DNA of 64,000 bases, from assembly GCF_056746865.1 (NCBI RefSeq), contig NZ_JBWKMP010000003.1. One strand, written 5' to 3'. The position numbers were made by a program, and so were the translations under genes. The number at the start of each line of letters is the position of its first letter. Position 1 is the first letter of the stretch. The DNA comes from a plasmid. Positions 1-19,522 of the stretch are shown here, one piece after another. The notes beneath the pieces are model-generated. The model saw only the letters and a program-made list of their open reading frames with translations. It ran no database searches and was not told where the DNA came from.

Positions 1-99
1 AAGATAGAAGCTCAATTACGAAAGGAGCAGCGTCAGTTGGTGGCGATGACTAACCAGCTATGGAACGCCGCTGTGAAAAAACGTGAGGCTTCCCTATGA
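1..99 (+). CDS. 3' end of an upstream gene (partial, hypothetical)
   Basis: Frame is open from the window edge (KIEAQLRKEQRQLVAMTNQLWNAAVKKREASL*). Its TGA (97-99) overlaps the ATG at 96 of the next gene (ATGA coupling). Confidence 0.4.
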   Translation, partial: KIEAQLRKEQRQLVAMTNQLWNAAVKKREASL

Positions 100-1460
100 C
101 GTTAATTAACTGGGAAGCGCATCGAGCTAAGTTCCTGGAGTTAAGAGAAGAAACCGGGATCACCATAAAAGAATATTGCGAGCAGCATGACCTCAGCTTT
201 AACACCGCCAGAAAGCATCTCAATATGAAAAAAAATGAGGTTAAGGCGAAAGCTAAGGCTACCGGGAAAAGTACAAAACAGCGCGCAAAAAGCAGCGCCA
301 CCGGCTCAAAAAAAGAGCAAAAAAAGGCTAATAAAAGCACAGAATTTACAAAAACTGACAAATCGTTGGCTGGTGGACGGTTCCGCGCCATGCCGCAAAA
401 ACAAAATGCGGATCACAAAGAAAAGCCAAGTAATAACAACAAGATACACAAGGATGTGAAGGGATCATTTTGTGATGAAATGGGAGAAATGATCCCTAAA
501 AGCAGCGATAAAGCCCAACGAAACAAGGGATCATTGCAAATGATCCCTGATTCATCAGCTCAAAGCACCACTTTGCCTGCCACCAACGTCGCCCGTGAGA
601 TGATGAAGAACGGCGCGACTGAACATTTACGACTTGCGATACAGATGGCGCAGGAACGAGCAATTCAGTATCAGGCTATCGTTGACCAGGAAGCGGAGCG
701 ACTACAGGAAGAGATTGACGCCCTCGGTGATACACAGCCAGAGGGGATGCACCCAGGGCAGCGTCTTCTCGGACTGATCAGCGATGCGGCCTACTACATG
801 AATGACTTTATCACCAGGCTGGCAGCCATCTATCAGAACGAGCAGAAGCTACGCCAGGGGGATGAAAAACTTGCGCAGGGCGCGCGTCAGCAGGCATTCA
901 GGGAGGCTGAGGCCAGAGAAAAACTGGCGATTGCCCGCCTACAAGCCGAGCAGCGTGGCAAGGAGATTGAGTATCGCATTGGCGCTGACGCACGCGCCGC
1001 CAGGGTTATCGCCGCCGCTATACGTATGCGTGAGCGCGAGGAGCTGGATGATATAGGTGTTGCTGAATATATCGAGCGGCAGGGCGTCAGTGTCCCGGCT
1101 ATCCTGGCGGCACGAGCGGCAAAAGCGATCTCACTTCTGGAGCCTCCGGTTTCTGACGTTAACGATGTTGATGATGAGCAACTGGATAAAGAGGCGAAGC
1201 AGTTTGCCGAGCAACAAGCTGGACTCCCACAATGGCTTGCACAACGCCGGGCTGAAGTAGCGAAAATCGTTGATAGGCTTGGGATGGGGGATTACGACCG
1301 GAACGGAGAACGTAAAGCCGGTGAATTTGAGGCCAATGATGAAGACCTGAATATAGACCCTTCCGCGACGGCTGATATCTACGGTGATTATGACGCGGGG
1401 GATACCGGTTTTGATGCTGTAGATGACGAGATTGCGATAGACCAGCCGGAGGATGACTAA
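96..1460 (+). CDS. pacA: terminase small subunit, P1 PacA-like
   Basis: 454 aa. N-terminal HTH-like segment (ITIKEYCEQHDLSFNTARKHL) as in P1 PacA. The stop overlaps the large-terminase start (TAATG at 1458-1462). Contains a GATC-repeat cluster. Confidence 0.6.
   Translation: MTLINWEAHRAKFLELREETGITIKEYCEQHDLSFNTARKHLNMKKNEVKAKAKATGKSTKQRAKSSATGSKKEQKKANKSTEFTKTDKSLAGGRFRAMPQKQNADHKEKPSNNNKIHKDVKGSFCDEMGEMIPKSSDKAQRNKGSLQMIPDSSAQSTTLPATNVAREMMKNGATEHLRLAIQMAQERAIQYQAIVDQEAERLQEEIDALGDTQPEGMHPGQRLLGLISDAAYYMNDFITRLAAIYQNEQKLRQGDEKLAQGARQQAFREAEAREKLAIARLQAEQRGKEIEYRIGADARAARVIAAAIRMREREELDDIGVAEYIERQGVSVPAILAARAAKAISLLEPPVSDVNDVDDEQLDKEAKQFAEQQAGLPQWLAQRRAEVAKIVDRLGMGDYDRNGERKAGEFEANDEDLNIDPSATADIYGDYDAGDTGFDAVDDEIAIDQPEDD
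459..548. repeat. four alternating-orientation copies of a GATC-containing motif inside pacA (candidate pac site)
   Basis: AAGGGATCATT at 459-469 and 525-535; its complement AAATGATCCCT at 488-498 and 538-548. Each copy carries a Dam site. P1 pac is a cluster of GATC-containing repeats inside pacA. Confidence 0.35.
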
Positions 1461-2968
1461 TGGCTGGTGGTCGTAAGATTAAGTGCGTCACCAGTGATCC
1501 ACGTTGGCGCGATATGGTTATCAGGTATCGATACAACTTTACCCAGGCGGTTGTCGATATTTTTGGGATGTTCCCCTCCCACCAGCAGCAGCAGATCATT
1601 CAGTCAGTGCAGGAGACGGGGAGCAGGACGACCGTTACGTCCGGACACGGAACGGGTAAGTCGTCCCTTACCGCGATGTTGCTACTAATTTTTATGATCC
1701 TGTTCCCCGACGCCCGCGTCATTATTGTTGCGAACAAAATAGGCCAGGTAAAAACAGGCGTATTCAAATACGTGAAACAGTTTTGGGCGAATGCTGTTAA
1801 GCGCCACGGCTGGTTACAGACCTATTTTGTCCTGTCTGACACCATGTTTTATGAGCGTTCCCGTAAAGGGATATGGGAAGTGCTCTGTAAAGGTTATCGA
1901 CTCGGTAACGAAGAGGCACTGGCGGGGGAGCACGCGGAGCATTTACTGCTAATCCTTGATGAAGCATCGGGCATATCCGATAAGGCGATTAACGTCATGA
2001 CGGGGGCGTTAACGCAGAAAGATAACCGTATGCTCATGCTTTCCCAGCCTACGCGTCCAAGCGGTTACTTTTATGAATCTCACCATTCAAGGGCAAAGGC
2101 AGAAGGCAATCCGGAAGGTGTCTGGACGGCAATAGTCCTTAACTCTGAAGAATCACCATTCGTTGAACCGAGCTTTATTCGTGAGAAATTGCTGGAGTAC
2201 GGCGGCAGGGATTCGCTGGAGTACATGGTTAAGGTGCTGGGCCAGTTCCCGCGTGCAATTAACGGGTATTTGCTTGGTCGTGATGAGTGCGACCGCGCCG
2301 CACGGCGTAAAGTGTTGCTGGAGAAAGATTGGGGCTGGGTAGCGACCGCTGACGTCGGTAATGGTCGCGATAAATCGGTGCTCAATATATGCAAAGTATC
2401 CGGTTATCGTGAGAAACGACGCGTTGTGAACTTTAAGATACTGGAGATGCCAGGCACTATGGACCCGTTGGCTTTTGCCGACTTTATCTATAACGAATGC
2501 ACTCCTGATAAATACCCGAACATCACCATTGCTGTGGATGCTGATGGCTTTGGTTCAGATACGTGTGCGCAGCTTGTCCGCCGTGGTGCTAATCCCGTTC
2601 GCATCCGTTGGGGTAAGCCTATGTTTGCGCTAAGAGACAGAGAACGCTTTGTCAATCAGCGTGCTTACGCCAATATTATGGCAGGGGATGCCATTAAATC
2701 CGGGCGTATGCGTATCGATAGTGACCCCAAAACCGCAGATCAGGCATCAAAAATCCCGTATATGCTTAACGAAGAAGGGAAGGTAGCGATGATGCGCAAG
2801 GAGCACATGCGGCAGAAGTTAAACATCAAGTCACCGGACAGATGGGATACCTACTGCTTCACTATGCTGGTGGATTACGTGCCTGCTAATGAAGACATTG
2901 GCGCAGAACTCGCAACATTCCGCGATCAGGTGTTGGCAGAAGTGGATATTCCTGATATTGACATTTAA
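1460..2968 (+). CDS. pacB: terminase large subunit, P1 PacB-like
   Basis: 502 aa. P-loop TSGHGTGKSS and Walker B LLLILDEASG. C-terminal nuclease-like half (WVATADVGNGRDKSV ... VDADGFG). Translationally coupled to pacA. Confidence 0.8.
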   Translation: MAGGRKIKCVTSDPRWRDMVIRYRYNFTQAVVDIFGMFPSHQQQQIIQSVQETGSRTTVTSGHGTGKSSLTAMLLLIFMILFPDARVIIVANKIGQVKTGVFKYVKQFWANAVKRHGWLQTYFVLSDTMFYERSRKGIWEVLCKGYRLGNEEALAGEHAEHLLLILDEASGISDKAINVMTGALTQKDNRMLMLSQPTRPSGYFYESHHSRAKAEGNPEGVWTAIVLNSEESPFVEPSFIREKLLEYGGRDSLEYMVKVLGQFPRAINGYLLGRDECDRAARRKVLLEKDWGWVATADVGNGRDKSVLNICKVSGYREKRRVVNFKILEMPGTMDPLAFADFIYNECTPDKYPNITIAVDADGFGSDTCAQLVRRGANPVRIRWGKPMFALRDRERFVNQRAYANIMAGDAIKSGRMRIDSDPKTADQASKIPYMLNEEGKVAMMRKEHMRQKLNIKSPDRWDTYCFTMLVDYVPANEDIGAELATFRDQVLAEVDIPDIDI

Positions 2969-2991
2969 AAGCCCCGGCGATTCGGGGCTTG
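2968..2991. terminator. bidirectional stem-loop between convergent pacB and 3006-4043
   Basis: GCCCCG (2971-2976) pairs with CGGGGC (2983-2988), flanked by A/T runs, between two convergent stops. Confidence 0.6.
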
Positions 2992-3005
2992 TGGGTGGCT
3001 TGCGA

Positions 3006-4043
3006 TTACCAGAGTTTTGCCGCGTACATCGTTTGTGTGAATGTGTACCCATAGCGTTCTTCAACGCTTTTACCGTATTTTTTCCTGGCTTCAGTAAGGC
3101 GGATGCCTGTCAGGTCATCGCCGGAGGCAATCATAACTTCCAGTAGTTCCAGGTCCATTTTATCCAGCCTTGCCATTGCATCTTTAGCCTCTTGAATTTT
3201 CCGGCTAACGATCTGGTGTATGGCTGGATCGGCTTCGGCCAGCATTTTATCTGATTTGTTTTTTAAACTCTGATTGCGGATATCAATGTTTCTCAGGATA
3301 TATGACTTCACGACGTAGCTTGGCTGCTGCTTTTCCAGATCACGAACCCGATAAAGGTCAAATTCGCCGAGAAGTCCGCACGGAAGCGGTTTAATGCCAG
3401 TGTAAATGGTAAGGGTGCGGCGCTCACCAACGTTGTTAACAACGGGAATCTCTGTGTTTGCTTTTTTTGCAAAGATCAGCGCACCGTGCGTACCCACTCT
3501 GAAGCGTGAAAGTCCATTGTTGCCCTCAATATTGGTGGTAATCACCACATCGGTATAACCTTCTTTTCTTGCGCGGTATACCTCGCCCTCACGTTCAGCG
3601 GCGAAGAATCTGCGTTCTTCTTCAAGCGCACCGACAACCTGTGAAAATATCCTGTTTTTCATGCTTTTCTTTATAGTTTTATCGTATTTTTTCAGCAGGT
3701 CTTCGCGCGTAAATGTTCTCGTTGTGGTTGCGCTTTGCATAACGATGTGCGTACTCTGATTAGTATCCTCAACAATGAATGGGATCGGTAAATAAACCGA
3801 CTCAACAATGTTTGAGGCTTTGTCATCATCCTTGCGACACAGATCAACAAAGGCTTTCCATTCGGCTATGCATTTTTCAGCTTCTTCTAATACAGCCGGA
3901 TCATGTGTTAATGCAACATGGCGAAATTCCTCGCCAACATAACTGGTATCATGGAAAACAGAGTTTGCGACCACCAGCTCTTTCCACCTTTCAGCGGTTT
4001 GCAGGAACCGTTTGTACTCATTCTCGATCGACTTCTTACTCAT
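3006..4043 (-). CDS. hypothetical protein; candidate C1-type immunity repressor by position only
   Basis: 345 aa from ATG 4043 (MSKKSIENEY...); the track ORF starts further upstream at 4106. It occupies the slot between pacB and the recombination site that c1 occupies in P1. An operator-like TTTTCTAACA lies 19 nt upstream of its ATG. I cannot assert sequence similarity to P1 C1. Confidence 0.4.
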   Translation of the reverse strand: MSKKSIENEYKRFLQTAERWKELVVANSVFHDTSYVGEEFRHVALTHDPAVLEEAEKCIAEWKAFVDLCRKDDDKASNIVESVYLPIPFIVEDTNQSTHIVMQSATTTRTFTREDLLKKYDKTIKKSMKNRIFSQVVGALEEERRFFAAEREGEVYRARKEGYTDVVITTNIEGNNGLSRFRVGTHGALIFAKKANTEIPVVNNVGERRTLTIYTGIKPLPCGLLGEFDLYRVRDLEKQQPSYVVKSYILRNIDIRNQSLKNKSDKMLAEADPAIHQIVSRKIQEAKDAMARLDKMDLELLEVMIASGDDLTGIRLTEARKKYGKSVEERYGYTFTQTMYAAKLW

Positions 4044-4061
4044 TATTCCTACTCGATTTAG

Positions 4062-4071
4062 TTTTCTAACA
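4062..4071. promoter_or_regulatory. operator-like site TTTTCTAACA
   Basis: Member of the dispersed motif family (see findings). Lies in the leader of the 3006-4043 gene. Confidence 0.45.
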
Positions 4072-4146
4072 TAAAAGTCCTGTGACAAATTTATGCTGAA
4101 TAACAAGGTGAGTAAAGGATAAAACCGCTTTTTTTTGATTGTTCCT

Positions 4147-4156
4147 ATTAGAAAAT
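4147..4156. promoter_or_regulatory. operator-like site, variant (ATTAGAAAAT = complement of ATTTTCTAAT)
   Basis: Variant of the TTCTAACA core (TTCTAAT), in the same intergenic region. Confidence 0.3.
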
Positions 4157-4239
4157 GTAACCAGGAGCGGCTACCGCATGGCTGACGGATTTGCGAAGTG
4201 ATCTGGTCGGTGTTTTTTTGGGAAAAAAGTTCCGATTTC

Positions 4240-4271
4240 TAACTTTAAATAATTGGCATTATTTAAAGTTA
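4240..4271. other. rox: rox site (Dre recombinase target)
   Basis: TAACTTTAAATAATTGGCATTATTTAAAGTTA is the exact reverse complement of the published rox sequence TAACTTTAAATAATGCCAATTATTTAAAGTTA (14-bp inverted arms, 4-bp spacer). Confidence 0.9.
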
Positions 4272-4280
4272 GGCTATAAT
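4253..4280 (+). promoter_or_regulatory. sigma70-like promoter overlapping rox, reading toward dre
   Basis: TTGGCA (4253-4258, spanning the rox spacer), a 16-nt spacer, then TATAAT (4275-4280). Lies 144 nt upstream of the dre ATG. Confidence 0.4.
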
Positions 4281-4423
4281 CTCCAGTAAACAGGCAGTAT
4301 TGACAAGGATGAAAAATCATGCCTCGAATCAAAGGCTTGAATTTTGAAAATTAACTTATAACTACCCTGTCAGTTTTCTATTTTTCACGTAGCGTTATCT
4401 GTATATAGAGGTTTAATAGTTTC

Positions 4424-5452
4424 ATGGGTGAACTAGTTATCTCCGGCGGTTCTGGTGGTTTTCTGCGCGATATTGGCACCGAATACCAGGAAGCTGCAAA
4501 AAACTTTATGCAGTTCATGAACGACCAGGGAGCTTATGCTCCAAATACGCTTCGAGATCTCCGTCTGGTGTTTCATTCCTGGGCGCGGTGGTGTAATTCG
4601 CGCCAGCGCCCCTGGTTCCCGATTACGCCGGAAATGGCCCGCGAGTATCTTCTCCAGTTGCATGAGGCCGATCTGGCCTCGACCACCATTGATAAGCACT
4701 ATGCCATGCTTAACATGCTGCTTTCGCAATGTGGCCTCCCGCCGCTGTCGGACGATAAAAGTGTGTCTCTGGCCATGCGGCGCATCCGGCGCGAAGCGGC
4801 AACGGAAAAAGGCGAGCGAACAGGCCAGGCTATACCGTTGCGGTGGGATGATCTGAAATTGCTCGACGTGTTGCTGTCCCGTTCCGAGCGGCTGGTGGAC
4901 CTGCGCAATCGGGCGTTTCTCTTCGTGGCATACAATACCCTGATGCGTATGTCAGAAATCTCGCGCATCCGCGTCGGAGATCTGGACCAAACAGGTGACA
5001 CTGTAACGCTGCATATTTCACACACGAAGACCATCACGACCGCCGCCGGACTTGATAAGGTGCTTTCTCGTTACACTACCGCCGTACTGAACGACTGGCT
5101 GGAGGTGTCCGGACTTCGAGAACATCCGGACGCGGTGCTATTCCCGCCAATACACCGCAGTAATAAGGCCAGAATCACGACAACGCCCCTTACTGCACCT
5201 GCAATGGAGAAAATATTCAGCGATGCCTGGGGGTTGCTGAACAAACGAGATGCCACGCCGAACAAAGGAAGATACCGGACGTGGACAGGCCATAGTGCGC
5301 GTGTTGGTGCGGCAATTGATATGGCTGAGAAACAGGTGTCAATGGTCGAGATCATGCAGGAAGGTACATGGAAAAAGCCCGAAACACTTATGCGATATTT
5401 GCGCCGTAGCGGGGCATCCGTTGGTGCAAATAGTCGCCTGATGGACTCATAA
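4424..5452 (+). CDS. dre: Dre-type (Cre-family) tyrosine recombinase
   Basis: 342 aa. Cre-like layout with the catalytic-region motifs HSARVGAA and TLMRYLR. Matches my recollection of phage D6 Dre over almost the whole length. Adjacent to an exact rox site. Confidence 0.93.
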   Translation: MGELVISGGSGGFLRDIGTEYQEAAKNFMQFMNDQGAYAPNTLRDLRLVFHSWARWCNSRQRPWFPITPEMAREYLLQLHEADLASTTIDKHYAMLNMLLSQCGLPPLSDDKSVSLAMRRIRREAATEKGERTGQAIPLRWDDLKLLDVLLSRSERLVDLRNRAFLFVAYNTLMRMSEISRIRVGDLDQTGDTVTLHISHTKTITTAAGLDKVLSRYTTAVLNDWLEVSGLREHPDAVLFPPIHRSNKARITTTPLTAPAMEKIFSDAWGLLNKRDATPNKGRYRTWTGHSARVGAAIDMAEKQVSMVEIMQEGTWKKPETLMRYLRRSGASVGANSRLMDS

Positions 5453-5457
5453 ATTAA

Positions 5458-5467
5458 TTTTCTAACA
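5458..5467. promoter_or_regulatory. operator-like site TTTTCTAACA
   Basis: The 19-nt string ATAAATTAATTTTCTAACA is identical to the one after ref (25208-25226). Sits at the head of the 5525-9410 operon. Confidence 0.45.
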
Positions 5468-5497
5468 ACCTTTTTAGACAGTGCATTTTAATGTAAA

Positions 5498-5527
5498 GTA
5501 CCCTCGCCTATTGCGGAGGGTACTTTG
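5498..5527 (+). terminator. rho-independent terminator after dre
   Basis: GTACCCTC (5498-5505) pairs with GAGGGTAC (5516-5523), followed by TTTG. Confidence 0.6.
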
Positions 5528-5869
5528 CACAATCGTATTACGGAATCAAAACGCTTCACTGTTGACGGTTACACCATAACCTTCACTGCGGGCGTTAAGC
5601 GCGACCAGGCGGTCGTGGTGTTCGGTGTTATGACCGGACTTGATGCCGTTCCCGTATTTACCCTCGAAAAAAACTGGCGAAATCTGGAGGAAGCTGAACG
5701 CTACGTCCGGAAAGTAACCGTCATTGCTGCTGAAAAACTCCTGGCCCACTATCAGGAAAATTATCGCGCTATGACCGAGAAAATTAACCATGTTTTCACT
5801 CGCCCCACCAGCGGCTTCATTGCCCCTGATGCGAATGCCGGGCGCTATCCGGCAAGGGGGCGCAAATGA
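5525..5869 (+). CDS. hypothetical protein
   Basis: 114-aa ORF with a TTG start just after a GGAGGG that is also the terminator stem. The stop overlaps the next start (ATGA at 5866). The start is uncertain. Confidence 0.4.
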   Translation: MHNRITESKRFTVDGYTITFTAGVKRDQAVVVFGVMTGLDAVPVFTLEKNWRNLEEAERYVRKVTVIAAEKLLAHYQENYRAMTEKINHVFTRPTSGFIAPDANAGRYPARGRK

Positions 5870-6354
5870 AAACTTACTACCCATCCCTGAACTGTTATCC
5901 AACCACTAATCCTGAGCTGTCAGGGAAACTTCTGTCCCTCCTGGCTGATAGTCCTGATGAATGGCATAAGCCTGGTGATATCAACACACAGTTCCCTGAG
6001 TACGGGTGTATCCGCACCCGAAATGAGCTGAAGAACCTCATTGCTCACGGTTTTGTCCGTCACCGTAGCGGGAAAGGCTATCAGTTGGCTATCCCACAAG
6101 GAGAGGCAAGAGAACTCTTTGGCTATCGAGAAAGCCAGACGCAAGCGCGGGTGATCGCAGAAATTATCCGTAATGGCAGCGTCTATGCCCGCAAATTCTG
6201 GCTGTCTGGCGGTGGTGATGCATCACAGTTCTTGCGTGCTGTGCGATCGCTGGAGGAACAAGGTGTTATCGAGAATACCTGCGTCTCCGTTCCGACCGCT
6301 CCGCATATCAAACGCCGGATTTATACATTTACCCGGAGAGCTAAAAAGCAATGA
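5866..6354 (+). CDS. hypothetical protein (possible winged-helix repeats)
   Basis: 162 aa; ATGA-coupled at both ends (5866 and 6351). Confidence 0.6.
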   Translation: MKTYYPSLNCYPTTNPELSGKLLSLLADSPDEWHKPGDINTQFPEYGCIRTRNELKNLIAHGFVRHRSGKGYQLAIPQGEARELFGYRESQTQARVIAEIIRNGSVYARKFWLSGGGDASQFLRAVRSLEEQGVIENTCVSVPTAPHIKRRIYTFTRRAKKQ

Positions 6355-6845
6355 TTAACGTGAAAGTGAAACGCCTTCATCCGGCGGCAAAACTCCCCGT
6401 TTACGCCACCGCCGGATCGGCGGCGATGGATTTTGTTGCTGTTGAAATAACGCCGGGTATCGATAGCAACGGCGCTATTTCCTCAAGCTGGTGGGTGCAT
6501 ACCGGCCTCGCTATGGCGATCCCTCCTGGCTGGTGTCTGAAACTTTATCCTCGTTCCGGATTGGGCTGCAAAAAGCATACGCGCCTGGCTAACTGCGTAG
6601 GAATTATCGACTCCGATTATCGCGGTGAAATCAAAGCAAAACTGATTACAGATCCCGGTGGTGAAGGCGTTTGCCTCAAGCCAGGAATGGCGGTCATGCA
6701 AGGCATTTTTGAGCGTGTTGAACCGGTATCGCTGGTAGAAGTTGATGAACTCGATGAAACAGAGCGAGGTGCTGGTGGCTTTGGTAGCACATCGGAAGAC
6801 CGCATTGAAATCAAGCGTACACCGCTTCAGTACGCAAAGTTTTAA
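6351..6845 (+). CDS. dut: dUTP pyrophosphatase (trimeric dUTPase)
   Basis: Motifs AGSAAMD, PRSGLG, GIIDSDYRGE and C-terminal RGAGGFGST. Confidence 0.9.
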   Translation: MINVKVKRLHPAAKLPVYATAGSAAMDFVAVEITPGIDSNGAISSSWWVHTGLAMAIPPGWCLKLYPRSGLGCKKHTRLANCVGIIDSDYRGEIKAKLITDPGGEGVCLKPGMAVMQGIFERVEPVSLVEVDELDETERGAGGFGSTSEDRIEIKRTPLQYAKF

Positions 6846-6859
6846 GTAGAGGAAAGGCT

Positions 6860-7510
6860 ATGAATAACATGCCAACGAAAGAGCTTTTTAAGTTCCTTCC
6901 CAAATACAAAGCTCACAAAAACGTTAGTGCATCGAAAATTAAAAATGTTGTTATTTTCGGAGTAACTGATGCCCCACTTTGGGGCTGCATCGAACTCGTT
7001 GAACCAAAAGGGGCAACAGTTTGTGTTGACGCAATGTTTTTACAAAAACACCGACCAAAAACTGGCGGGTATCTGATCGTTTATGAAAACGGTTATCTGT
7101 TCTATGCCCCGGAGAAACCATTTGAGGAATGCTATGGCCTGGTTAACGACGCCTCCAAAAATGGAACCACGGTCATCATTACGGATGACAACGGCGTGAT
7201 GATTAATCTTACTGGGAGCGTAACTATTTCTGCTGGTGGCATCACCACCCAGCAAGAAGAAATCGACCTTGAAGCAGCCGACTTCTCTGATGCGCTAATG
7301 TGGTTGAAGGAAGGCAAGAAAGTTGCCCGACGCGAGTGGAAAGGCGAAAAGCAATTCTGCTGGTTAGTTCTCGCTGGAAGCGTCAATTTACACGGCATTC
7401 ACGTTCCTTATGGTGACCATTTTGTATTGAAAGATGCACAAAATATGGACAGCGTTTGGTTGCCGTCTGTGGATGATTTACTGGCCTGTGACTGGTTTGT
7501 TGTGGAGTGA
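6860..7510 (+). CDS. protein with C-terminal DUF2829-like domain (the family that includes Thoeris anti-defence Tad2)
   Basis: 216 aa. The C-terminal 75 aa (DFSDALMWLKEGKKVARREWKGEKQF...VDDLLACDWFVVE) fit the DUF2829 pattern: aromatic-x-A-L-x-x-G-K-K-V-R-R-x-W near the start and D-L-L-A-x-D-W near the end. Confidence 0.55.
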   Translation: MNNMPTKELFKFLPKYKAHKNVSASKIKNVVIFGVTDAPLWGCIELVEPKGATVCVDAMFLQKHRPKTGGYLIVYENGYLFYAPEKPFEECYGLVNDASKNGTTVIITDDNGVMINLTGSVTISAGGITTQQEEIDLEAADFSDALMWLKEGKKVARREWKGEKQFCWLVLAGSVNLHGIHVPYGDHFVLKDAQNMDSVWLPSVDDLLACDWFVVE

Positions 7511-7516
7511 TTTAAC

Positions 7517-8323
7517 GTGGAAAATACCAAGAACATTCAATATCGCTTGCGTAACGGCCTGCTGGTGGATGTAAACGATGATATGTCCCTGCCCTTTGCC
7601 ACCATTGAGCGAACCATCCTTACATACCTGGGCTTAGACGAAGAGTTAGATAGTGAGAATGGCATTGCTATCTGGCGTGACGGAAAAACGGGAGTCAGAC
7701 GTTTTATTACGGCAAGAGGCATTCAGTGCACACAGGAAGAATTGTTTGAACTGGCGCAGTCTTATGGATGCATCGCGTTAGATCCCCTGTATGACCCAGC
7801 CATAGCACAACAACTCATTCGAGAGCTGTCGCTTTCGGTCACGCCAATAATCTTCCGCCAGGGAACCTTAACCGGCACATGGCGTGTAGAACGCATCTCT
7901 AAATATCAGCCATATAATATCCATTTGAACGGCACTATTACTGGTGTGGATCAACCAGTAGCAGGTGAAAACAAAGACCTGGAACTTGCAGTAATGATGG
8001 CAGCTTGTCGCGTGCTTGGCCTGGGCAAGCAGATGTTTATCCATTTCCCAAACGGCGCGGAAGGCGAAGTAGAGCTGATTTCCTGCGACTTTTCCTTAAC
8101 CTGGATGCTTGATGAATTCCTGGACAAAACAGTATTCCGTGCTGAAGAACTGGATATGTATGTCACCTCAAGTATTCCTAATGACGTGAAAGTTGAGGCC
8201 ATCGCTACAGCCAGGGCGAAATGCCGTGCGGCGATTGCAGAACAGGCCAAAGAAGAACAGTCCGATGAAGTCGCGGCAGATGTGGAGGCAGAGGTAGCGG
8301 AGGATGCTGATGCTGACGCCTAA
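7517..8323 (+). CDS. hypothetical protein with acidic C-terminal tail
   Basis: 268 aa, GTG start. Tail EEQSDEVAADVEAEVAEDADADA. Overlaps the next gene by 20 nt. Confidence 0.55.
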   Translation: MENTKNIQYRLRNGLLVDVNDDMSLPFATIERTILTYLGLDEELDSENGIAIWRDGKTGVRRFITARGIQCTQEELFELAQSYGCIALDPLYDPAIAQQLIRELSLSVTPIIFRQGTLTGTWRVERISKYQPYNIHLNGTITGVDQPVAGENKDLELAVMMAACRVLGLGKQMFIHFPNGAEGEVELISCDFSLTWMLDEFLDKTVFRAEELDMYVTSSIPNDVKVEAIATARAKCRAAIAEQAKEEQSDEVAADVEAEVAEDADADA

Positions 8324-9410
8324 AAACATCACCGAATTACCAGAGTGGAGAGAGCTGGTAAGCAAATATAGCCATGACTGGGCATTAGCAGCAGAAGAGT
8401 TGATGGGTGTTAAGTTAACCCACCAGCAAAAGCTAATTGTTGAGGCGATTCAACAAAAAGGTTCAGCAGTCAGCGTCACCACTCCTGAAGGGATAGGCCA
8501 AAAGACGGTTATCGCTATAATTAGTATTCTTTATACAATCCTGATGCCTGAGTCTAAAACGGTTATTGTTTCCCCAAAGTTCTATAATTGTCGCAGGCAA
8601 GTTATCCAATACATAAGTACGTATTGGGATAGAGTCAGTAACAGAATCCCATTGCTGGGAGAATATTTTAAAGTCGACGGAAACGGCATCAATCATCGTT
8701 ACCGGGAATATTGGGGCTGCGAAATTAAGCCATATCACCGAAATTATGAGGAAGGTTTCGGTGGATATTATGCTGAACATCTTTTAATCATTGTTACGGA
8801 GGCGGCTCTTGCTGGCGATCGGCTATTCAGCATGTTAAGAGCATCGTTAGTAAGTGACGATTCACGTATACTTTTAATGTCCGCTCCTTCAGAGGAGGAG
8901 CATGGACACTTTTACGATTCCCATCATGGTCGTGCAAAATCAGAAGAAAATCCATGTGGTATTTATACAGCCATCAAGCTGAACGCAGAAGATACCCCCA
9001 TTATTTCACAAGGTTATCTTGATAACATTGCAGAAATATATGGTGGTAAAAACAGCGATTACTACCGTCGCATGATTCTTGGTGAGTTTCCAGGTATTAG
9101 GGAGGCTGTTCTTGAATCAGATATGCCGAAAACAATGCGCTTTTCGATGCCTGATGGTAGTGAATGGATAATGCCATTACGAGTGATAGCCCGGCATCAT
9201 GCACAGCACCACGCCAAAAAACATGGCGTTACAACATTGGAGTGGTTGAAATCGCACACCATTCCACTCTTCACTGCAGATCACAATGCTATCGTTGAGT
9301 GGGCAAAAACAATTCCGTGGGAGAATGTCGCTGAATACGCCCACATGCTAAAACCGCCGAAAGACAGGCAAGAAATTAGCTGGCTGACAGCAGAAAAAAT
9401 CATTGAGTGA
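8304..9410 (+). CDS. paralog of the terminase large-subunit ATPase domain (degenerate Walker motifs, no nuclease domain)
   Basis: Residues 1-270 are colinear with PacB residues 20-280 (THQQKLIVEAIQ vs SHQQQQIIQSVQ; HFYDSHHGRAKSEENP vs [16 protein letters not shown]; GEFP vs GQFP). The P-loop is EGIGQKT and Walker B is LLIIVTEAA. The C-terminal 95 aa are unrelated to PacB. Confidence 0.6.
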   Translation: MLMLTPKNITELPEWRELVSKYSHDWALAAEELMGVKLTHQQKLIVEAIQQKGSAVSVTTPEGIGQKTVIAIISILYTILMPESKTVIVSPKFYNCRRQVIQYISTYWDRVSNRIPLLGEYFKVDGNGINHRYREYWGCEIKPYHRNYEEGFGGYYAEHLLIIVTEAALAGDRLFSMLRASLVSDDSRILLMSAPSEEEHGHFYDSHHGRAKSEENPCGIYTAIKLNAEDTPIISQGYLDNIAEIYGGKNSDYYRRMILGEFPGIREAVLESDMPKTMRFSMPDGSEWIMPLRVIARHHAQHHAKKHGVTTLEWLKSHTIPLFTADHNAIVEWAKTIPWENVAEYAHMLKPPKDRQEISWLTAEKIIE

Positions 9411-9417
9411 TAGTAGG

Positions 9418-9446
9418 AAGCCCGCCTGGTTGAGCGGGCTTCTTTT
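9418..9446. terminator. bidirectional terminator between 8304-9410 and doc
   Basis: GAAGCCCGC (9418-9426) pairs with GCGGGCTTC (9434-9442), followed by TTTTC. Confidence 0.7.
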
Positions 9447-9826
9447 CAAATATTGGAACCATATAGTTCACGTAGTTTATCCGCTACTGAAGATACGGGG
9501 ATTTCACCAGTTGCAGCCCCCACCGCAAGTTCCACCAGCACGGGAGAATCATATACCTGTATACCGTTACGGCGTAGAAATAGCAGCGCACTGTTTAGCG
9601 CGGTACGCTTATTGGCATCATTGAATATATGCCCTCTCGCTGTAGCCACCAGGTAGGTGGCGGAGACTTCGAAAAGGTCGGTGATCTCTTCGTAGGCAAC
9701 TCTGGCCTGAACTCTCCCGATAATGGCCTCTGCCCTGCCCGGATCTGACATGCCAGGCAGGCCGCCGTAGCGGCTTATATTCGCATCATGAAGCGCAATA
9801 AGTTCTTCCGGTGATATATGCCTCAT
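9446..9826 (-). CDS. doc: Doc toxin (Fic-fold kinase) of the phd-doc addiction module
   Basis: 126 aa. [22 protein letters not shown]... with the Doc-type Fic motif [12 protein letters not shown]. Matches P1 Doc as I recall it, apart from the C-terminal ~25 aa. Confidence 0.93.
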
Positions 9827-10047
9827 TATCGGTTAACCAGTTCCTTGTTGGTGGAGTCCAGGGTGTCAAACAGGGATGCAAATTCAGCATCCAGCGCCGC
9901 TTTTTTGTAGGCTTCGAAAGTAGCCTTGCTGACAATTACTGCTGGCTCACGGCCTCTGCGGGTGATTTCAACCTCTTCCCCGGCTTCAACATTGTTGAGC
10001 ACTTCAGAAAGGTTGCCACGCGCGGTACGGAAGTTAATGGATTGCAT
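9826..10047 (-). CDS. phd: Phd antitoxin
   Basis: 73 aa from [40 protein letters not shown]..., as in P1 Phd. The stop overlaps the doc start. Confidence 0.93.
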
Positions 10048-10119
10048 AAACACCTCGTGTACTCGTTATGTGTACACAATTATAAACTTCACAGGCATAA
10101 AGCACCAGCACTTTGCAGC

Positions 10120-10509
10120 TTAAATAACCGGACAATCATCAAATTCCCCACTTCGGGCATCATTGATGACATGAGTGATCACACCAAAAACAGCATTACT
10201 GCCCGTGTATCCATCGTCATCTACTGGTAACGCCTCTTTCTTCCCGGTGCTTAAGTCCTCCAGGTGCTGGCGCGGATACTTCCTGTATCTCTTTATGCGA
10301 TATTCACCCTCCATAGCGCACACAAGCAGAGAACCATCAACCGGAGTAAGCGAGGAATCAACCACCAGCAAAGCACCCTGCAATATTCCCTCACGGTGAT
10401 GGCTATCAGCTGCCCGCATGAAGTAGGTCGCTGAAGGATGTCTAATTATCTGCTGATCAAGAGAAATTCGGCTTTCAACATAATCCGCCGCAGGAGAAGG
10501 GAAGCCCAT
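10120..10509 (-). CDS. humD: UmuD'-like protein (P1 HumD homolog)
   Basis: 129 aa starting MGFPSPAADYVE, i.e. already at the position of cleaved UmuD'. S24 peptidase fold. A LexA box lies 19 nt upstream. Confidence 0.88.
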   Translation of the reverse strand: MGFPSPAADYVESRISLDQQIIRHPSATYFMRAADSHHREGILQGALLVVDSSLTPVDGSLLVCAMEGEYRIKRYRKYPRQHLEDLSTGKKEALPVDDDGYTGSNAVFGVITHVINDARSGEFDDCPVI

Positions 10510-10527
10510 AGCGTTTTACCTCAATGA

Positions 10528-10547
10528 TACTGTTTATTCATACAGTA
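10528..10547. promoter_or_regulatory. LexA (SOS) box
   Basis: TACTGTTTATTCATACAGTA fits the consensus TACTG-N10-CAGTA. Lies just upstream of humD. Confidence 0.8.
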
Positions 10548-10632
10548 TACATTGAAAAGGCATAGTTTGTGAAAGCGGGGTTTGTAGGCGCGCCACGCTG
10601 GGGGCTAATCACATTTCTCCCCCATCTTGCCG

Positions 10633-10884
10633 TTATTTTTTTGGTGCATCCTCGTTCTGATACACCGGATCGCTCCCTTTTGGCAACTGGAGGCTTAACT
10701 GCCGATAGTGCCGTAACCGTTCCATGAAATAGGTGCGCAGATTCTCTGGTTGCTCGCGGGCTACCTGTTCAGCTATGACAGGTATGTTCAATCGCTCTTT
10801 GTACGCCACACCGCTGGCAGCCAGATCAACGTTAACCTTATCCCGTTCTTCCTGACTTTTAGCTGCAATATTCCAGTCGCTCAT
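10633..10884 (-). CDS. hot: homolog of DNA polymerase III theta subunit (P1 Hot)
   Basis: 83 aa. [43 protein letters not shown] parallels E. coli HolE ([39 protein letters not shown]). Confidence 0.85.
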
Positions 10885-10886
10885 AT

Positions 10887-11159
10887 TTAAGGCTCACATT
10901 TCCAGATGGTATTCTGAACACCCGAACCGGGCGCAAGATTAGGGTTGGCGTTCGCGCTATGCTGATATACTGCTTTAGACTTCCCATATTGCTGACAGGC
11001 TTTATCTGCGGTTTTTTGCAGGCTATCCAGGCCATACCAACCATCTGACTGTATGCTTACCTTTTCACCGTCGTTGTATTGCACCATTGCACACCCAGAT
11101 ATAGCCAGTATCGCACCGACAATAACGCTTTTCCATAAAACTCTATGCAACATATACAA
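10887..11159 (-). CDS. putative lipoprotein
   Basis: 90 aa. Signal peptide plus lipobox ([12 protein letters not shown]). Confidence 0.6.
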
Positions 11160-11198
11160 AAATCCCCTCTGTGAATTGAGGGGATTTTAGCATGGTGA

Positions 11199-11834
11199 TC
11201 AGATATCGGCCTTATTCGGAATTTTATCAGCCACCAGCGGCAATAAAGCCTTCGCCATTTCATGAACCAACATGGCATCAATGACGCCTAGCGTATGGCC
11301 CGGTTTAATGTTTAATGCCGCCTCAAGATGACTCCTTTCCAGGCCGCTTTTCTCGGCTTGTTTATGACGATCTGGTGTAATAACTTCGCCCAAAACGCGG
11401 CTAATTTTTTCTCGTAATTGCTGGGTGCCAGCACACTTGATCGCTGTATCGTGGAGACGGTTAACCAGTTCGCGATAAACATGCGGCTTAATGCGGATAC
11501 GTTCACCGGTGACGCCCTTTCCTGGCGCTGGCACCGAACTATCCGGATAGTTGCCAGCCTCGTAAGCTACCCGCAGCCAGTGCATGAATGTTTCAGTGGA
11601 CACACAACCACAGTCCACATCGATTTTTCCGCGTTGCTGTTCCAGCCACTGCTCAAAATTCAATCTACACGTATTACTTTCATGTTGCTCTTTTTGTCTC
11701 AAGGCCAGCATCTGCTGGGCTATTTCCAATACTTCATCTGCCGTATATCCAGCACCGTGACCATACATTTCGATACGGGAAATAATCTCTGATATACGCT
11801 CTTCAGTGATTCTGGTCATTTCTTTTTGCGCCAT
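11199..11834 (-). CDS. hypothetical protein (shares a module with 23758-24369)
   Basis: 211 aa. KPHVYRELVNRLHDTAIKCAGTQQLREKI aligns with APHIYRELVNALRDIAAVYHGTEQLRERL of the DUF4406-like protein. Confidence 0.6.
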   Translation of the reverse strand: MAQKEMTRITEERISEIISRIEMYGHGAGYTADEVLEIAQQMLALRQKEQHESNTCRLNFEQWLEQQRGKIDVDCGCVSTETFMHWLRVAYEAGNYPDSSVPAPGKGVTGERIRIKPHVYRELVNRLHDTAIKCAGTQQLREKISRVLGEVITPDRHKQAEKSGLERSHLEAALNIKPGHTLGVIDAMLVHEMAKALLPLVADKIPNKADI

Positions 11835-12187
11835 TTCTTTTCACATTCCTTAGTCCATTTTTCAATGTTCATTTTGGCAATATCAGTCATTCCATCACCT
11901 AAGAAATACTTTTTCCGGTATGTCTTGCACTTAAACCACACTACAACAGCCACCAGCCAGAAAATAAAAGGCCATACAGCAATACCAACGACAGCCGCGA
12001 TAAAGCCCAATAGCCATAAATGAAGCTCTCCAACTTCTGTTTCCGGCAATATTCTTAAAGAATTAAACAGCAGGCTGAACGAATGGTCGTATGCATTGGC
12101 GGTATAAGACATGCAATCCATATAATTAAAGTCATAGCCTGCGGCTGCCGCCCATAATGGGCGGTCAAGAAAATGTTTTAGTGTCAT
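11816..12187 (-). CDS. membrane protein
   Basis: 123 aa. Hydrophobic core LWLLGFIAAVVGIAVWPFIFWLVAVVVWF. Confidence 0.55.
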   Translation of the reverse strand: MTLKHFLDRPLWAAAAGYDFNYMDCMSYTANAYDHSFSLLFNSLRILPETEVGELHLWLLGFIAAVVGIAVWPFIFWLVAVVVWFKCKTYRKKYFLGDGMTDIAKMNIEKWTKECEKKWRKKK

Positions 12188-19488: not shown

Positions 19489-19522
19489 ATGTTAGAAAAT
19501 TAAAATCAATATTCTAACACGG
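19489..19522. promoter_or_regulatory. inverted pair of operator-like sites
   Basis: ATGTTAGAAAAT (19489-19500) and ATTCTAACAC (19511-19520) face each other, 42 nt upstream of the 19447 start. Confidence 0.5.

Follow-up and report, generated by a model that had tools for sequence, protein, structure and literature searches.

A degenerate paralogue of the PacB terminase ATPase domain, joined to a small tail domain, in a D6-type phage-plasmid

A PacB-like gene outside the packaging operon

We analysed a 64,000-nucleotide stretch of plasmid DNA (contig NZ_JBWKMP010000003.1 of assembly GCF_056746865.1, hereafter the window), and in it a gene at 8310..9410 on the plus strand that encodes a degenerate paralogue of PacB, the large subunit of the phage terminase. 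Because of its gene order, its ~85% DNA identity to phage D6 across positions 1-12000 and its match to the E. coli plasmid CP057047.1, which carries a 100% identical copy of the paralogue gene, we assign the element to the D6-type members of the P1-like phage-plasmids. The region 1-12000 contains, in this order, pacA (96-1460), pacB (1460-2968, plus strand), c1 (minus strand), a rox site, a gene for a Cre/Dre-type tyrosine recombinase, two small open reading frames (ORFs), dut, a Tad2-like (DUF2829) gene, an isaA-like gene and the paralogue, 3' of which doc/phd and humD lie on the minus strand. The resident PacB, a bona fide large terminase of 502 residues in which the Walker A and B motifs and the nuclease half are intact, served as the reference for comparison. 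An earlier reading of the sequence by a model (the original prediction) had listed the genes leading up to the paralogue as hypothetical, hypothetical, dUTPase, DUF2829 protein and acidic protein, and had placed the paralogue outside the late packaging operon. Both statements hold: the acidic protein turns out to be homologous to P1 IsaA, and the paralogue is separated from pacA-pacB by 5.3 kb, with c1 and the recombinase gene in between.

The ORF of the paralogue also opens at an ATG at 8304, which would give 368 residues. The likely start is the ATG at 8310 (366 residues), because a GGAGG at 8299-8303 sits 6 nt upstream of it and because database homologues, including a 100% identical protein (P0001), begin with MLTPKN.

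A predicted terminase ATPase fold without a nuclease domain

In a BLASTP comparison the paralogue and the resident PacB align colinearly, residues 7-263 of the former with residues 8-264 of the latter, at 86 of 258 identities (33%), 59% positives, 2 gaps and an E value of 1e-51. All of the blocks from which colinearity with the ATPase half of PacB had been predicted (THQQKLIVEAIQ, AEHLLIIVTEAA, RILLMS...EDTP and GEFP) fall within this alignment, and the nuclease half had rightly been described as lost, since the C-terminal 238 residues of PacB (265-502) have no counterpart in the paralogue. Compared with PHROG 5902, the family of PacB-type terminases, the paralogue gives an E value of 1.7e-133.

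A structure model, which the original prediction had proposed as a check, was computed with ColabFold/AlphaFold2 from 78 sequences and reached a mean predicted local distance difference test score (pLDDT) of 92.6. The top PDB matches of this model in Foldseek are the large-terminase (TerL) ATPase domains of P74-26, Sf6, T4, D6E and HK97, at a probability of 1.00 and E values from 8e-9 to 1e-6. As modelled, the paralogue thus adopts an ASCE/RecA-like terminase ATPase fold, and BLASTP, the model and Foldseek agree on a terminase-like domain, homologous to PacB residues 8-264, that is encoded by 8310..9092 (plus strand). The pLDDT falls to 63-79 around model residues 261-280, where an inter-domain linker (9084..9113, plus strand) leads into a C-terminal domain of ~98 residues (9114..9407, plus strand) that stands in place of the nuclease domain.

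Loss of the catalytic residues

The alignment is in register through both nucleotide-binding motifs, and in both of them the catalytic residue has been replaced. At the Walker A motif (8484..8507, plus strand), where PacB has SGHGTGKS, the paralogue has PEGIGQKT; the octets GHGTGKSS and PEGIGQKT are aligned, so that the canonical lysine corresponds to a glutamine and a lysine follows one position later. At the Walker B motif (8781..8807, plus strand) LLLILDEAS of PacB has become LLIIVTEAA, and within it ILDEAS is matched by IVTEAA, the aspartate having changed to threonine. In a table of motifs compiled from 46 PacB-family terminases and nine paralogues, SGHGTGKS, (I/V)DEAS and SQPT are kept by every one of the terminases (46/46), while none of the paralogues (0/9) keeps either the Walker A lysine or the Walker B aspartate. 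Across the paralogue family the position of the lysine is taken by Q, E, H, R or T and that of the aspartate by T, I, A, M, V or L; the position of the catalytic glutamate holds E, D or N. A P-loop that works in a shifted register (GQKT) can be ruled out at the level of the family, since members with GIGRPQ, GIGETS or GVGTTT have no lysine nearby. The predicted loss of the catalytic residues is thereby confirmed, and the one escape from it that had been foreseen is closed.

Other parts of the domain have been kept. Upstream of the P-loop, THQQ (8418..8429, plus strand), aligned with SHQQ of PacB, is retained in most paralogues. The HQQ motif is encoded in both PacB and the paralogue by CCACCAGCA, which is Chi on the opposite strand (8420-8427, minus strand, in the paralogue gene), and part of the nucleotide conservation at these codons may reflect Chi; the 64-kb window holds 42 Chi octamers (GCTGGTGG) against ~2 expected, those at 8420-8427 and 1579-1586 (both minus strand) being examples. 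Farther downstream, MSAPS (8877..8891, plus strand) aligns with the invariant SQPT block of PacB, which we take to be the coupling or C motif of TerL, and keeps its S and P while the Q is lost. The block GHFYDSHHGRAKSEENPCGIYTAIKLNAEDTPI (8904..9002, plus strand) is strongly conserved between the paralogues and PacB and is not catalytic; its invariant columns are G201, F203, Y204, S206, H207, H208, A211, N216, P217, G219, A223, I224, L226, E229 and P232. Judging from the alignment, residues 201-232 are a candidate for a shared binding surface or for a structural core, and the N-terminal ~35 residues are also invariant between the paralogues and PacB.

Set against PacB as a whole, the paralogue therefore shares a homologous ATPase domain with the same predicted fold, together with the N-terminal helices, HQQ, the GxG of the P-loop, S-x-P and the GxFYxSHH...NPxG block, but differs in lacking the Walker A lysine, the Walker B aspartate and the nuclease domain, and in a net charge that is acidic and not basic. 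It also differs in setting, in that PacB is the product of a late gene adjoining pacA, whereas the paralogue appears to be an early accessory and is dispensable.

The C-terminal domain

The segment that replaces the nuclease half had been described as an unrelated, histidine-rich tail of 95 residues. This description has to be revised, since residues ~271-368 match the C-terminus of PHROG 17928 and belong to a conserved domain family of ~98 residues in which the histidines themselves are not conserved (H frequency 0.01-0.34 per position). A profile built from six tails retrieves at least 840 phage and prophage proteins (E <= 1e-3), and the best 120 of these matches are nearly all stand-alone proteins of ~98-104 residues without a Pfam domain. 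Nine positions are invariant across 119 tail sequences, and the paralogue has all of them (D20, W24, P27, I31, A32, F59, W69, W75 and W96 in the numbering of the tail). The stand-alone early phage proteins and the tail of the paralogue thus have the invariant D, W, P, I, A, F, W, W, W in common. They differ in that the family is strongly acidic (median isoelectric point (pI) 4.3, net charge -12), whereas the tail encoded in the window is atypical in being near-neutral and histidine-rich, and in that it is fused to a dead terminase domain. The model of the tail has a beta-beta-alpha3 topology, for which we found no relative in fold or sequence, including among replication and recombination proteins; Pfam, NCBIfam and PADLOC likewise contain no family for the paralogue protein, for its tail or for IsaA.

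Stand-alone tail genes are located in the early regions of lambdoid prophages, either after DnaB or O/P, before ninB, or in the operon on the exo/bet side, and one follows the ban-like helicase gene of the P1-like Cronobacter phage JK004 (gene_35). Gene_34 of JK004 was considered as a leftover of the N-terminal domain and was rejected, as it has no similarity to it. In Xanthomonas phage SAC (gene 35, L005 2882-4294) a DUF1351 protein carries the tail domain at its C-terminus, and its gene directly precedes those for Erf, an exonuclease and a single-stranded DNA-binding protein (SSB); the same DUF1351-tail fusion is present in the relatives CP2, Tenjo, Tabio and Sopo.

The two halves of the paralogue behave as modules. 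An exhaustive profile search over 1.84 billion cluster representatives recovered proteins of ~260 residues that consist of the dead ATPase domain only (P0153, P0174, P0175, P0176, P0179, P0207 and P0267), one of them with a verified stop codon and one at the same D6-type locus, from which it follows that the dead ATPase domain can stand alone. In a paralogue of 38% identity (P0007) the fused tail is 71-79% identical to stand-alone JK004-type proteins at the same genomic position and only 35-40% identical to the tails of other paralogues. Since the dead ATPase domain and the tail are found fused in both orders, their sequences suggest that the two modules work together. The reversed order, tail domain first and dead ATPase domain second, is that of P0181 (L026 6001-6741, on a contig of GCA_024867085.4), an ORF that is truncated where a Tn3-family transposase gene has inserted and that adjoins a gene for a Ref-like RecA-dependent nuclease. 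A further protein, P0177 (L027 6001-7335), carries a dead ATPase domain (Walker A GDGTGISH, Walker B IIPDAT) followed by a different C-terminal extension of ~180 residues, and its gene has DUF551, Ead/Ea22, pol III theta and UmuC-like genes as neighbours.

Descent and selection

Homologues of the paralogue exist at 88, 81, 65, 49 and 38% identity. In a neighbour-joining tree of the ATPase domain the paralogues form a single long-branched clade that is attached deep within the PacB family, and each of them is 33-42% identical to every enterobacterial PacB, that of its own element included. Because the clade is deep and single and the identity to all enterobacterial PacBs stays within this range, the sequences identify the paralogue as an old, monophyletic and fast-evolving lineage and not as a recent duplicate of the resident pacB.

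All eight of the paralogue DNA sequences that we compared are open reading frames. Ratios of nonsynonymous to synonymous substitution (dN/dS), calculated by the Nei-Gojobori method for those pairs only in which synonymous sites are unsaturated, are 0.24-0.41 for the ATPase-like domain and 0.06-0.24 for the tail, compared with 0.03-0.04 for the PacB ATPase domain when the same element pairs are used, so that the value of the paralogue N-terminal domain is 7-10 times higher. Since the reading frames are open and the ratios are below 1, these comparisons place the gene under purifying selection, with a constraint that is much weaker or more heterogeneous than that on the true terminase, and they characterize the product as a selected pseudoenzyme and the gene as something other than a pseudogene. 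Evidence for a decaying duplicate, which would have told against the original prediction, was accordingly not what intact reading frames and these ratios in both domains provided. One copy, of the P1 type, departs from the common form: in phage vB_EcoM-813R1 (L006 3224-4294) the protein has 357 residues and a different C-terminus, ...ICTSTVG, and its tail is matched by tblastn in two pieces, which is probably due to a frameshifted tail domain or to a sequencing error there.

The charge of the paralogue has also moved away from that of the terminase. ATPase domains from PacB are basic, with a median pI of 9.1 and a net charge of +6, whereas seven of eight fused paralogues have an N-terminal domain with a pI of 5.8-6.8 and a net charge of -1 to -7; the trend is not absolute, as some of the proteins consisting of the N-terminal domain only are basic. 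Because the N-terminal domain is acidic to neutral and the tail family is acidic, a DNA-binding role appears unlikely from composition, and the earlier suggestion of a repurposed DNA-binding module is weakened.

Genomic settings and distribution

Directly upstream of the paralogue lies the isaA-like gene (7517..8323, plus strand), whose product of 268 residues has an acidic C-terminus, is 47% identical to P1 IsaA (E 2e-85) and falls into PHROG 2326. Its stop overlaps the start of the paralogue by 14-20 nt, an overlap that recurs in L002, L007, L008, L018 and L019. The paralogue is found in three genomic configurations. In the D6-type configuration (A), that of the window, it follows the recombinase gene, two ORFs, dut, the Tad2-like gene and isaA; in the P1-type configuration (B) the order is ssb, isaA, paralogue, with hxr on the opposite strand; and in the third (C) it comes directly after a ban-like DnaB gene, without isaA. 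The isaA-like gene is thus a conserved upstream partner in two of the three, and in both of these, A and B, the isaA stop overlaps the paralogue start. In P1 itself the ssb-isaA operon is headed by a C1 operator, which the P1 record lists as Ossb (formerly Op21), and the site of the paralogue is occupied by IS1 and the unrelated isaB. Neither P1 isaB nor the extended P1 isaA is a remnant of the paralogue, there being no similarity. P1-like plasmids are known to differ from one another at the P1-type site (PMC6906374). IsaA was also considered as a paralogue of the small subunit PacA, which would have made the pair a kind of shadow terminase operon, and this was ruled out as neither BLASTP nor hhalign gave a match.

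In the window, a 17-mer with the character of an operator, AAATTAATTTTCTAACA (5451..5467, plus strand), is situated between the recombinase gene and the operon's first ORF. The 9-nt core of this motif, TTTTCTAAC, occurs nine times in the 64 kb, at 4062, 5458, 18301, 24586, 25217 and 35940 on the plus strand and at 19491, 24567 and 45347 on the minus strand; for the repeat, written (A/T)TTAATTTTCTAACA, fewer than one occurrence is expected by chance. From this recurrence we regard the motif as a candidate for the C1 operator of D6-type elements, C1 binding being deduced. The consensus of the P1 C1 operator itself has no match in the window with up to 3 mismatches. The operator-headed operon of the original prediction, probably an early one, is upheld in so far as an operator-like motif precedes it; no sigma-70 consensus promoter was found next to this motif. 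At the other end, a stable, GC-rich, terminator-like hairpin followed by UCUUUUC (9415..9444; free energy -19.8 kcal/mol, z -3.6) comes directly after the paralogue stop and, judged by sequence, marks the end of the operon; in D6 the same terminator-like hairpin stands directly 3' of isaA.

A full-length paralogue is present on 163 of 790 matching plasmids, or about a fifth, most of these plasmids matching via PacB, and all 93 matches in complete E. coli genomes (93/93) are plasmid-borne. D6 and P1 are without it. About half of the 93 E. coli matches are reduced to the gene's first ~30 nt and final 37 nt, joined at an AATTA microhomology, and this deletion scar implies that the gene is ancestral at the site and that many D6-like plasmids have since lost it. 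An example of the scar is found at L030 3489-3540 (E. coli plasmid NZ_CP021537.1), with ~50 other complete E. coli plasmids, and leaves the mini-ORF MLTPKNITELAG. A survey of D6- and P1-type elements for conservation of the gene, as originally proposed, thus gives a divided answer: many elements keep it, while D6 is without it and many relatives have deleted it. Together with the finding that P1 isaA and isaB are non-essential by CRISPR interference (PMC10695390), this describes a gene that is dispensable and frequently lost, yet conserved where present.

Decoupling from the resident terminase

Alleles of the paralogue do not follow those of the packaging genes. We compared four allele types, a small sample. 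Between the window and the element encoding P0003, PacA, PacB, C1 and Cre are 100% identical and IsaA is 99% identical, while the N-terminal domain of the paralogue is 75% and the Tad2-like protein 63% identical. Between pS143-4 and the P0002 elements, PacA (95-98%), PacB (99%) and IsaA (94%) are again close and the N-terminal domain is 55% identical. The relation is inverted between the window and the P0002 elements, where PacA (74-75%), PacB (92%) and IsaA (76%) are accompanied by an N-terminal domain at 89%. Synonymous divergence between the window and the P0003 element is 0.29 in the N-terminal domain and 0.015 in the tail, which indicates that the divergent segment was imported by recombination. 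By these comparisons, paralogue alleles are exchanged independently of PacA, PacB, C1, Cre and IsaA, and co-evolution of the paralogue with PacA and PacB is ruled out within the sample. Any model in which the paralogue has to be closely fitted to the terminase of its own element is weakened by this decoupling, and with it the proposal that the paralogue holds its own PacA or pac until late in infection, since the N-terminal domain is only 75% identical where PacA and PacB are 100% identical.

The same allele pattern is shown by the Tad2-like gene of the operon (6860..7510, plus strand; Pfam PF11195, E 2.8e-18), the other hypervariable gene there, whose 63% identity between elements with identical PacA, PacB, C1 and Cre comes from the comparison with L022 8515-9201. 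Tad2 is a known anti-Thoeris family, and the gene suggests an accessory, anti-defence character of the operon. Its length varies, from 146 residues in D6 (L001 2594-3034) to 216-228 elsewhere, and related elements have a second Tad2-like gene upstream of lpa (L022 299-874).

Possible functions of the paralogue

Large terminases are regarded as near-immutable core enzymes, and it is for this reason that several bacterial immune receptors use them as infection signatures. The present family keeps the shape of the terminase, drops its chemistry, sits apart from the packaging genes and evolves fast. Since a look-alike that is selected without catalysis can act only by binding, we consider it very probable that the paralogue is a selected, non-catalytic terminase mimic that works in this way. 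It would then be a pseudoenzyme with a PacB-type ATPase fold, incapable of ATP hydrolysis or nuclease activity and connected by a flexible linker to a small domain that many phages make separately. As an accessory gene of repressor-controlled early operons, near Tad2-like, dut, ssb or ban genes and with alleles that are freely swapped between backbones, it would produce a terminase look-alike ahead of the real terminase, and its action would be stoichiometric.

As to the target, the most likely one would be a host factor that recognises the terminase ATPase fold, which in enterobacteria points to the terminase-sensing receptors Avs1-3 and Upx. According to a recent preprint, the isolated ATPase domain of the terminase is enough to activate EcAvs2, which makes contact with ATP at the interface; SeAvs3 recognises residues of the active site as well as the bound ATP, and Upx likewise senses the ATPase domain (bioRxiv 10.64898/2026.04.30.721860). 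A mimic could engage such sensors without presenting the bound ATP and the active-site features needed for activation, so that the sensing of PacB late in infection would be blunted, and the appended domain could contribute a second binding activity. An early-made decoy that engages the host terminase sensors non-productively is the function that we rank first, although only as a tentative choice. Its more specific and more doubtful form is that of a first phage-encoded mimic of a pathogen-associated molecular pattern (a "PAMP mimic"), in which an early, ATP-blind copy of the ATPase occupies or mis-assembles Avs1-3 or Upx and the acidic domain serves as an inhibitory or tethering module; if this were true, the rapid turnover of alleles would record an arms race with terminase sensors. 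Tad2 and other sponge or decoy proteins of phages offer a functional analogy only, since they are likewise encoded by patchily distributed early accessory genes with shuffled alleles but are not homologous to the paralogue.

Several observations weigh against a decoy for host sensors. T4 vs.8, which resembles the paralogue in being an extra phage protein with a terminase ATPase-like domain, without a nuclease and encoded outside the packaging operon, triggers EcAvs2 rather than blocking it (bioRxiv 10.64898/2026.04.30.721860). It differs from the paralogue, however, in keeping Walker A and B and in having no appended domain, and it was rejected as a relative (BLASTP E 2.3); with no detectable sequence similarity, the two are of independent origin. 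A mimic that lacks ATP and active-site residues may fail to bind the sensors altogether, and the loss of the motifs could itself be an escape from Avs sensing, on the view that any additional terminase-like protein is a liability, whatever its job. PADLOC found nothing in the paralogue, and the blocks conserved with PacB (the N-terminal helices and 201-232) are equally well explained by binding to PacA, PacB or the portal. Finally, no sigma-70 consensus promoter was found beside the motif at 5451-5467, so that we infer the early timing of expression, as we do the action by binding and the identity of the target.

That the blocks shared with PacB fit the packaging machinery equally well is the starting point of the reading that we rank second, in which an early, dead ATPase regulates the packaging of its own phage, or is dominant-negative for it, by binding PacA, capping PacB rings or sitting on the portal. 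In its favour, the protein has the fold of a ring-motor subunit, its N-terminal ~35 residues and its 201-232 block have stayed invariant with PacB though catalysis is lost, and the gene is in early, not late, operons. Nevertheless, the alleles do not track those of PacA or PacB, the dN/dS is 7-10 times the PacB value, packaging proceeds without the paralogue in P1, D6 and many relatives, and P1 isaA/isaB at the homologous site are non-essential (PMC10695390). We therefore hold such a regulator to be rather unlikely, and say the same of its detailed version, in which premature pac cleavage is blocked or headful processivity is tuned. The company kept by the tail could instead speak for an accessory of early DNA metabolism (replication, recombination or end protection), in which the tail docks on a partner and the terminase-like domain is a scaffold. 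Tail-domain genes lie near DnaB or O/P genes in lambdoid prophages and after ban in JK004-type elements, the tail is fused to the DUF1351 protein upstream of Erf, exonuclease and SSB in Xanthomonas phages, and the paralogue itself follows ssb-isaA or ban; but such neighbourhoods are also the usual home of unrelated moron and accessory genes, DNA binding is unlikely given that both domains range from acidic to neutral, and the tail has no link in fold or sequence to replication or recombination proteins. We rank this explanation third and consider it unlikely.

A weapon against competitors, which we rank fourth and consider improbable, would fit the rapid divergence, shuffled alleles and patchy distribution that are typical of conflict genes. 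By forming mixed inactive complexes, such a weapon would poison the terminases of P1-like phages infecting the same cell, or those of PacA/PacB-hijacking satellites, and P1-like elements often co-occur and are incompatible. Against it, the resident PacB, only 33-38% identical to the paralogue just like all other PacBs, would also be threatened, with no evident discrimination between self and non-self; moreover, if the gene is controlled by C1, it would be silent in the lysogen, where exclusion matters most. Least probable by far, and ranked last, is a decaying, functionless remnant of a duplicated pacB. The absence of the gene from D6 and P1, its deletion in many plasmids, the altered C-terminus in 813R1 and the relaxed constraint relative to PacB could all be read in this way, but it is largely refuted by reading frames that are intact across members only 34-88% identical, by dN/dS well below 1 in both domains, by the conserved non-catalytic motifs and the confident model, and by the gain of a tail domain and the existence of independent architectures (N-terminal domain only, reversed order, another C-terminus).

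Whichever partner a terminase mimic binds, what is new here is a terminase-derived pseudoenzyme with a new domain partner. We found no description in the literature of a PacB paralogue or of an inactive terminase paralogue in P1-like elements; PHROG 5902 lumps the paralogue with PacB under "unknown function", and public records label it "hypothetical protein" or, wrongly, "terminase large subunit". The family provides a handle on how phages cope with terminase-sensing immunity and on whether non-catalytic subunits regulate packaging motors. It also defines an unannotated domain of ~98 residues (in at least 840 proteins), for which the fusion to the dead ATPase domain in both orders, a Rosetta-stone link, is the first functional association.

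Other features of the region

The rox site upstream of the recombinase gene (4424-5452) is a perfect inverted repeat at 4240-4271, TAACTTTAAATAAT-TGGC-ATTATTTAAAGTTA, and together with the Cre/Dre-type recombinase it marks the element as D6-type (Dre/rox) and not P1-type (Cre/lox). A strong sigma-70-like promoter, TTGGCA-16-TATAAT (11/12), at 4253-4280 overlaps this rox-type repeat.

For IsaA we detected no family, fold or PDB relative. An alignment of its homologues (A6) has a highly conserved core of 240 residues and a variable acidic C-terminal tail of 5-25 residues, and the annotated N-terminal extension of 58 residues in P1 IsaA is missing in all other homologues.

A very stable hairpin at 5492-5529 (free energy -23.5 kcal/mol, z -6.4) lies between the operator-like motif and the operon's first ORF, whose GGAGG and TTG start (5525) fall within the 3' arm of the hairpin. 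From its position it could be a terminator of the recombinase gene, an attenuator or an element of translational occlusion.

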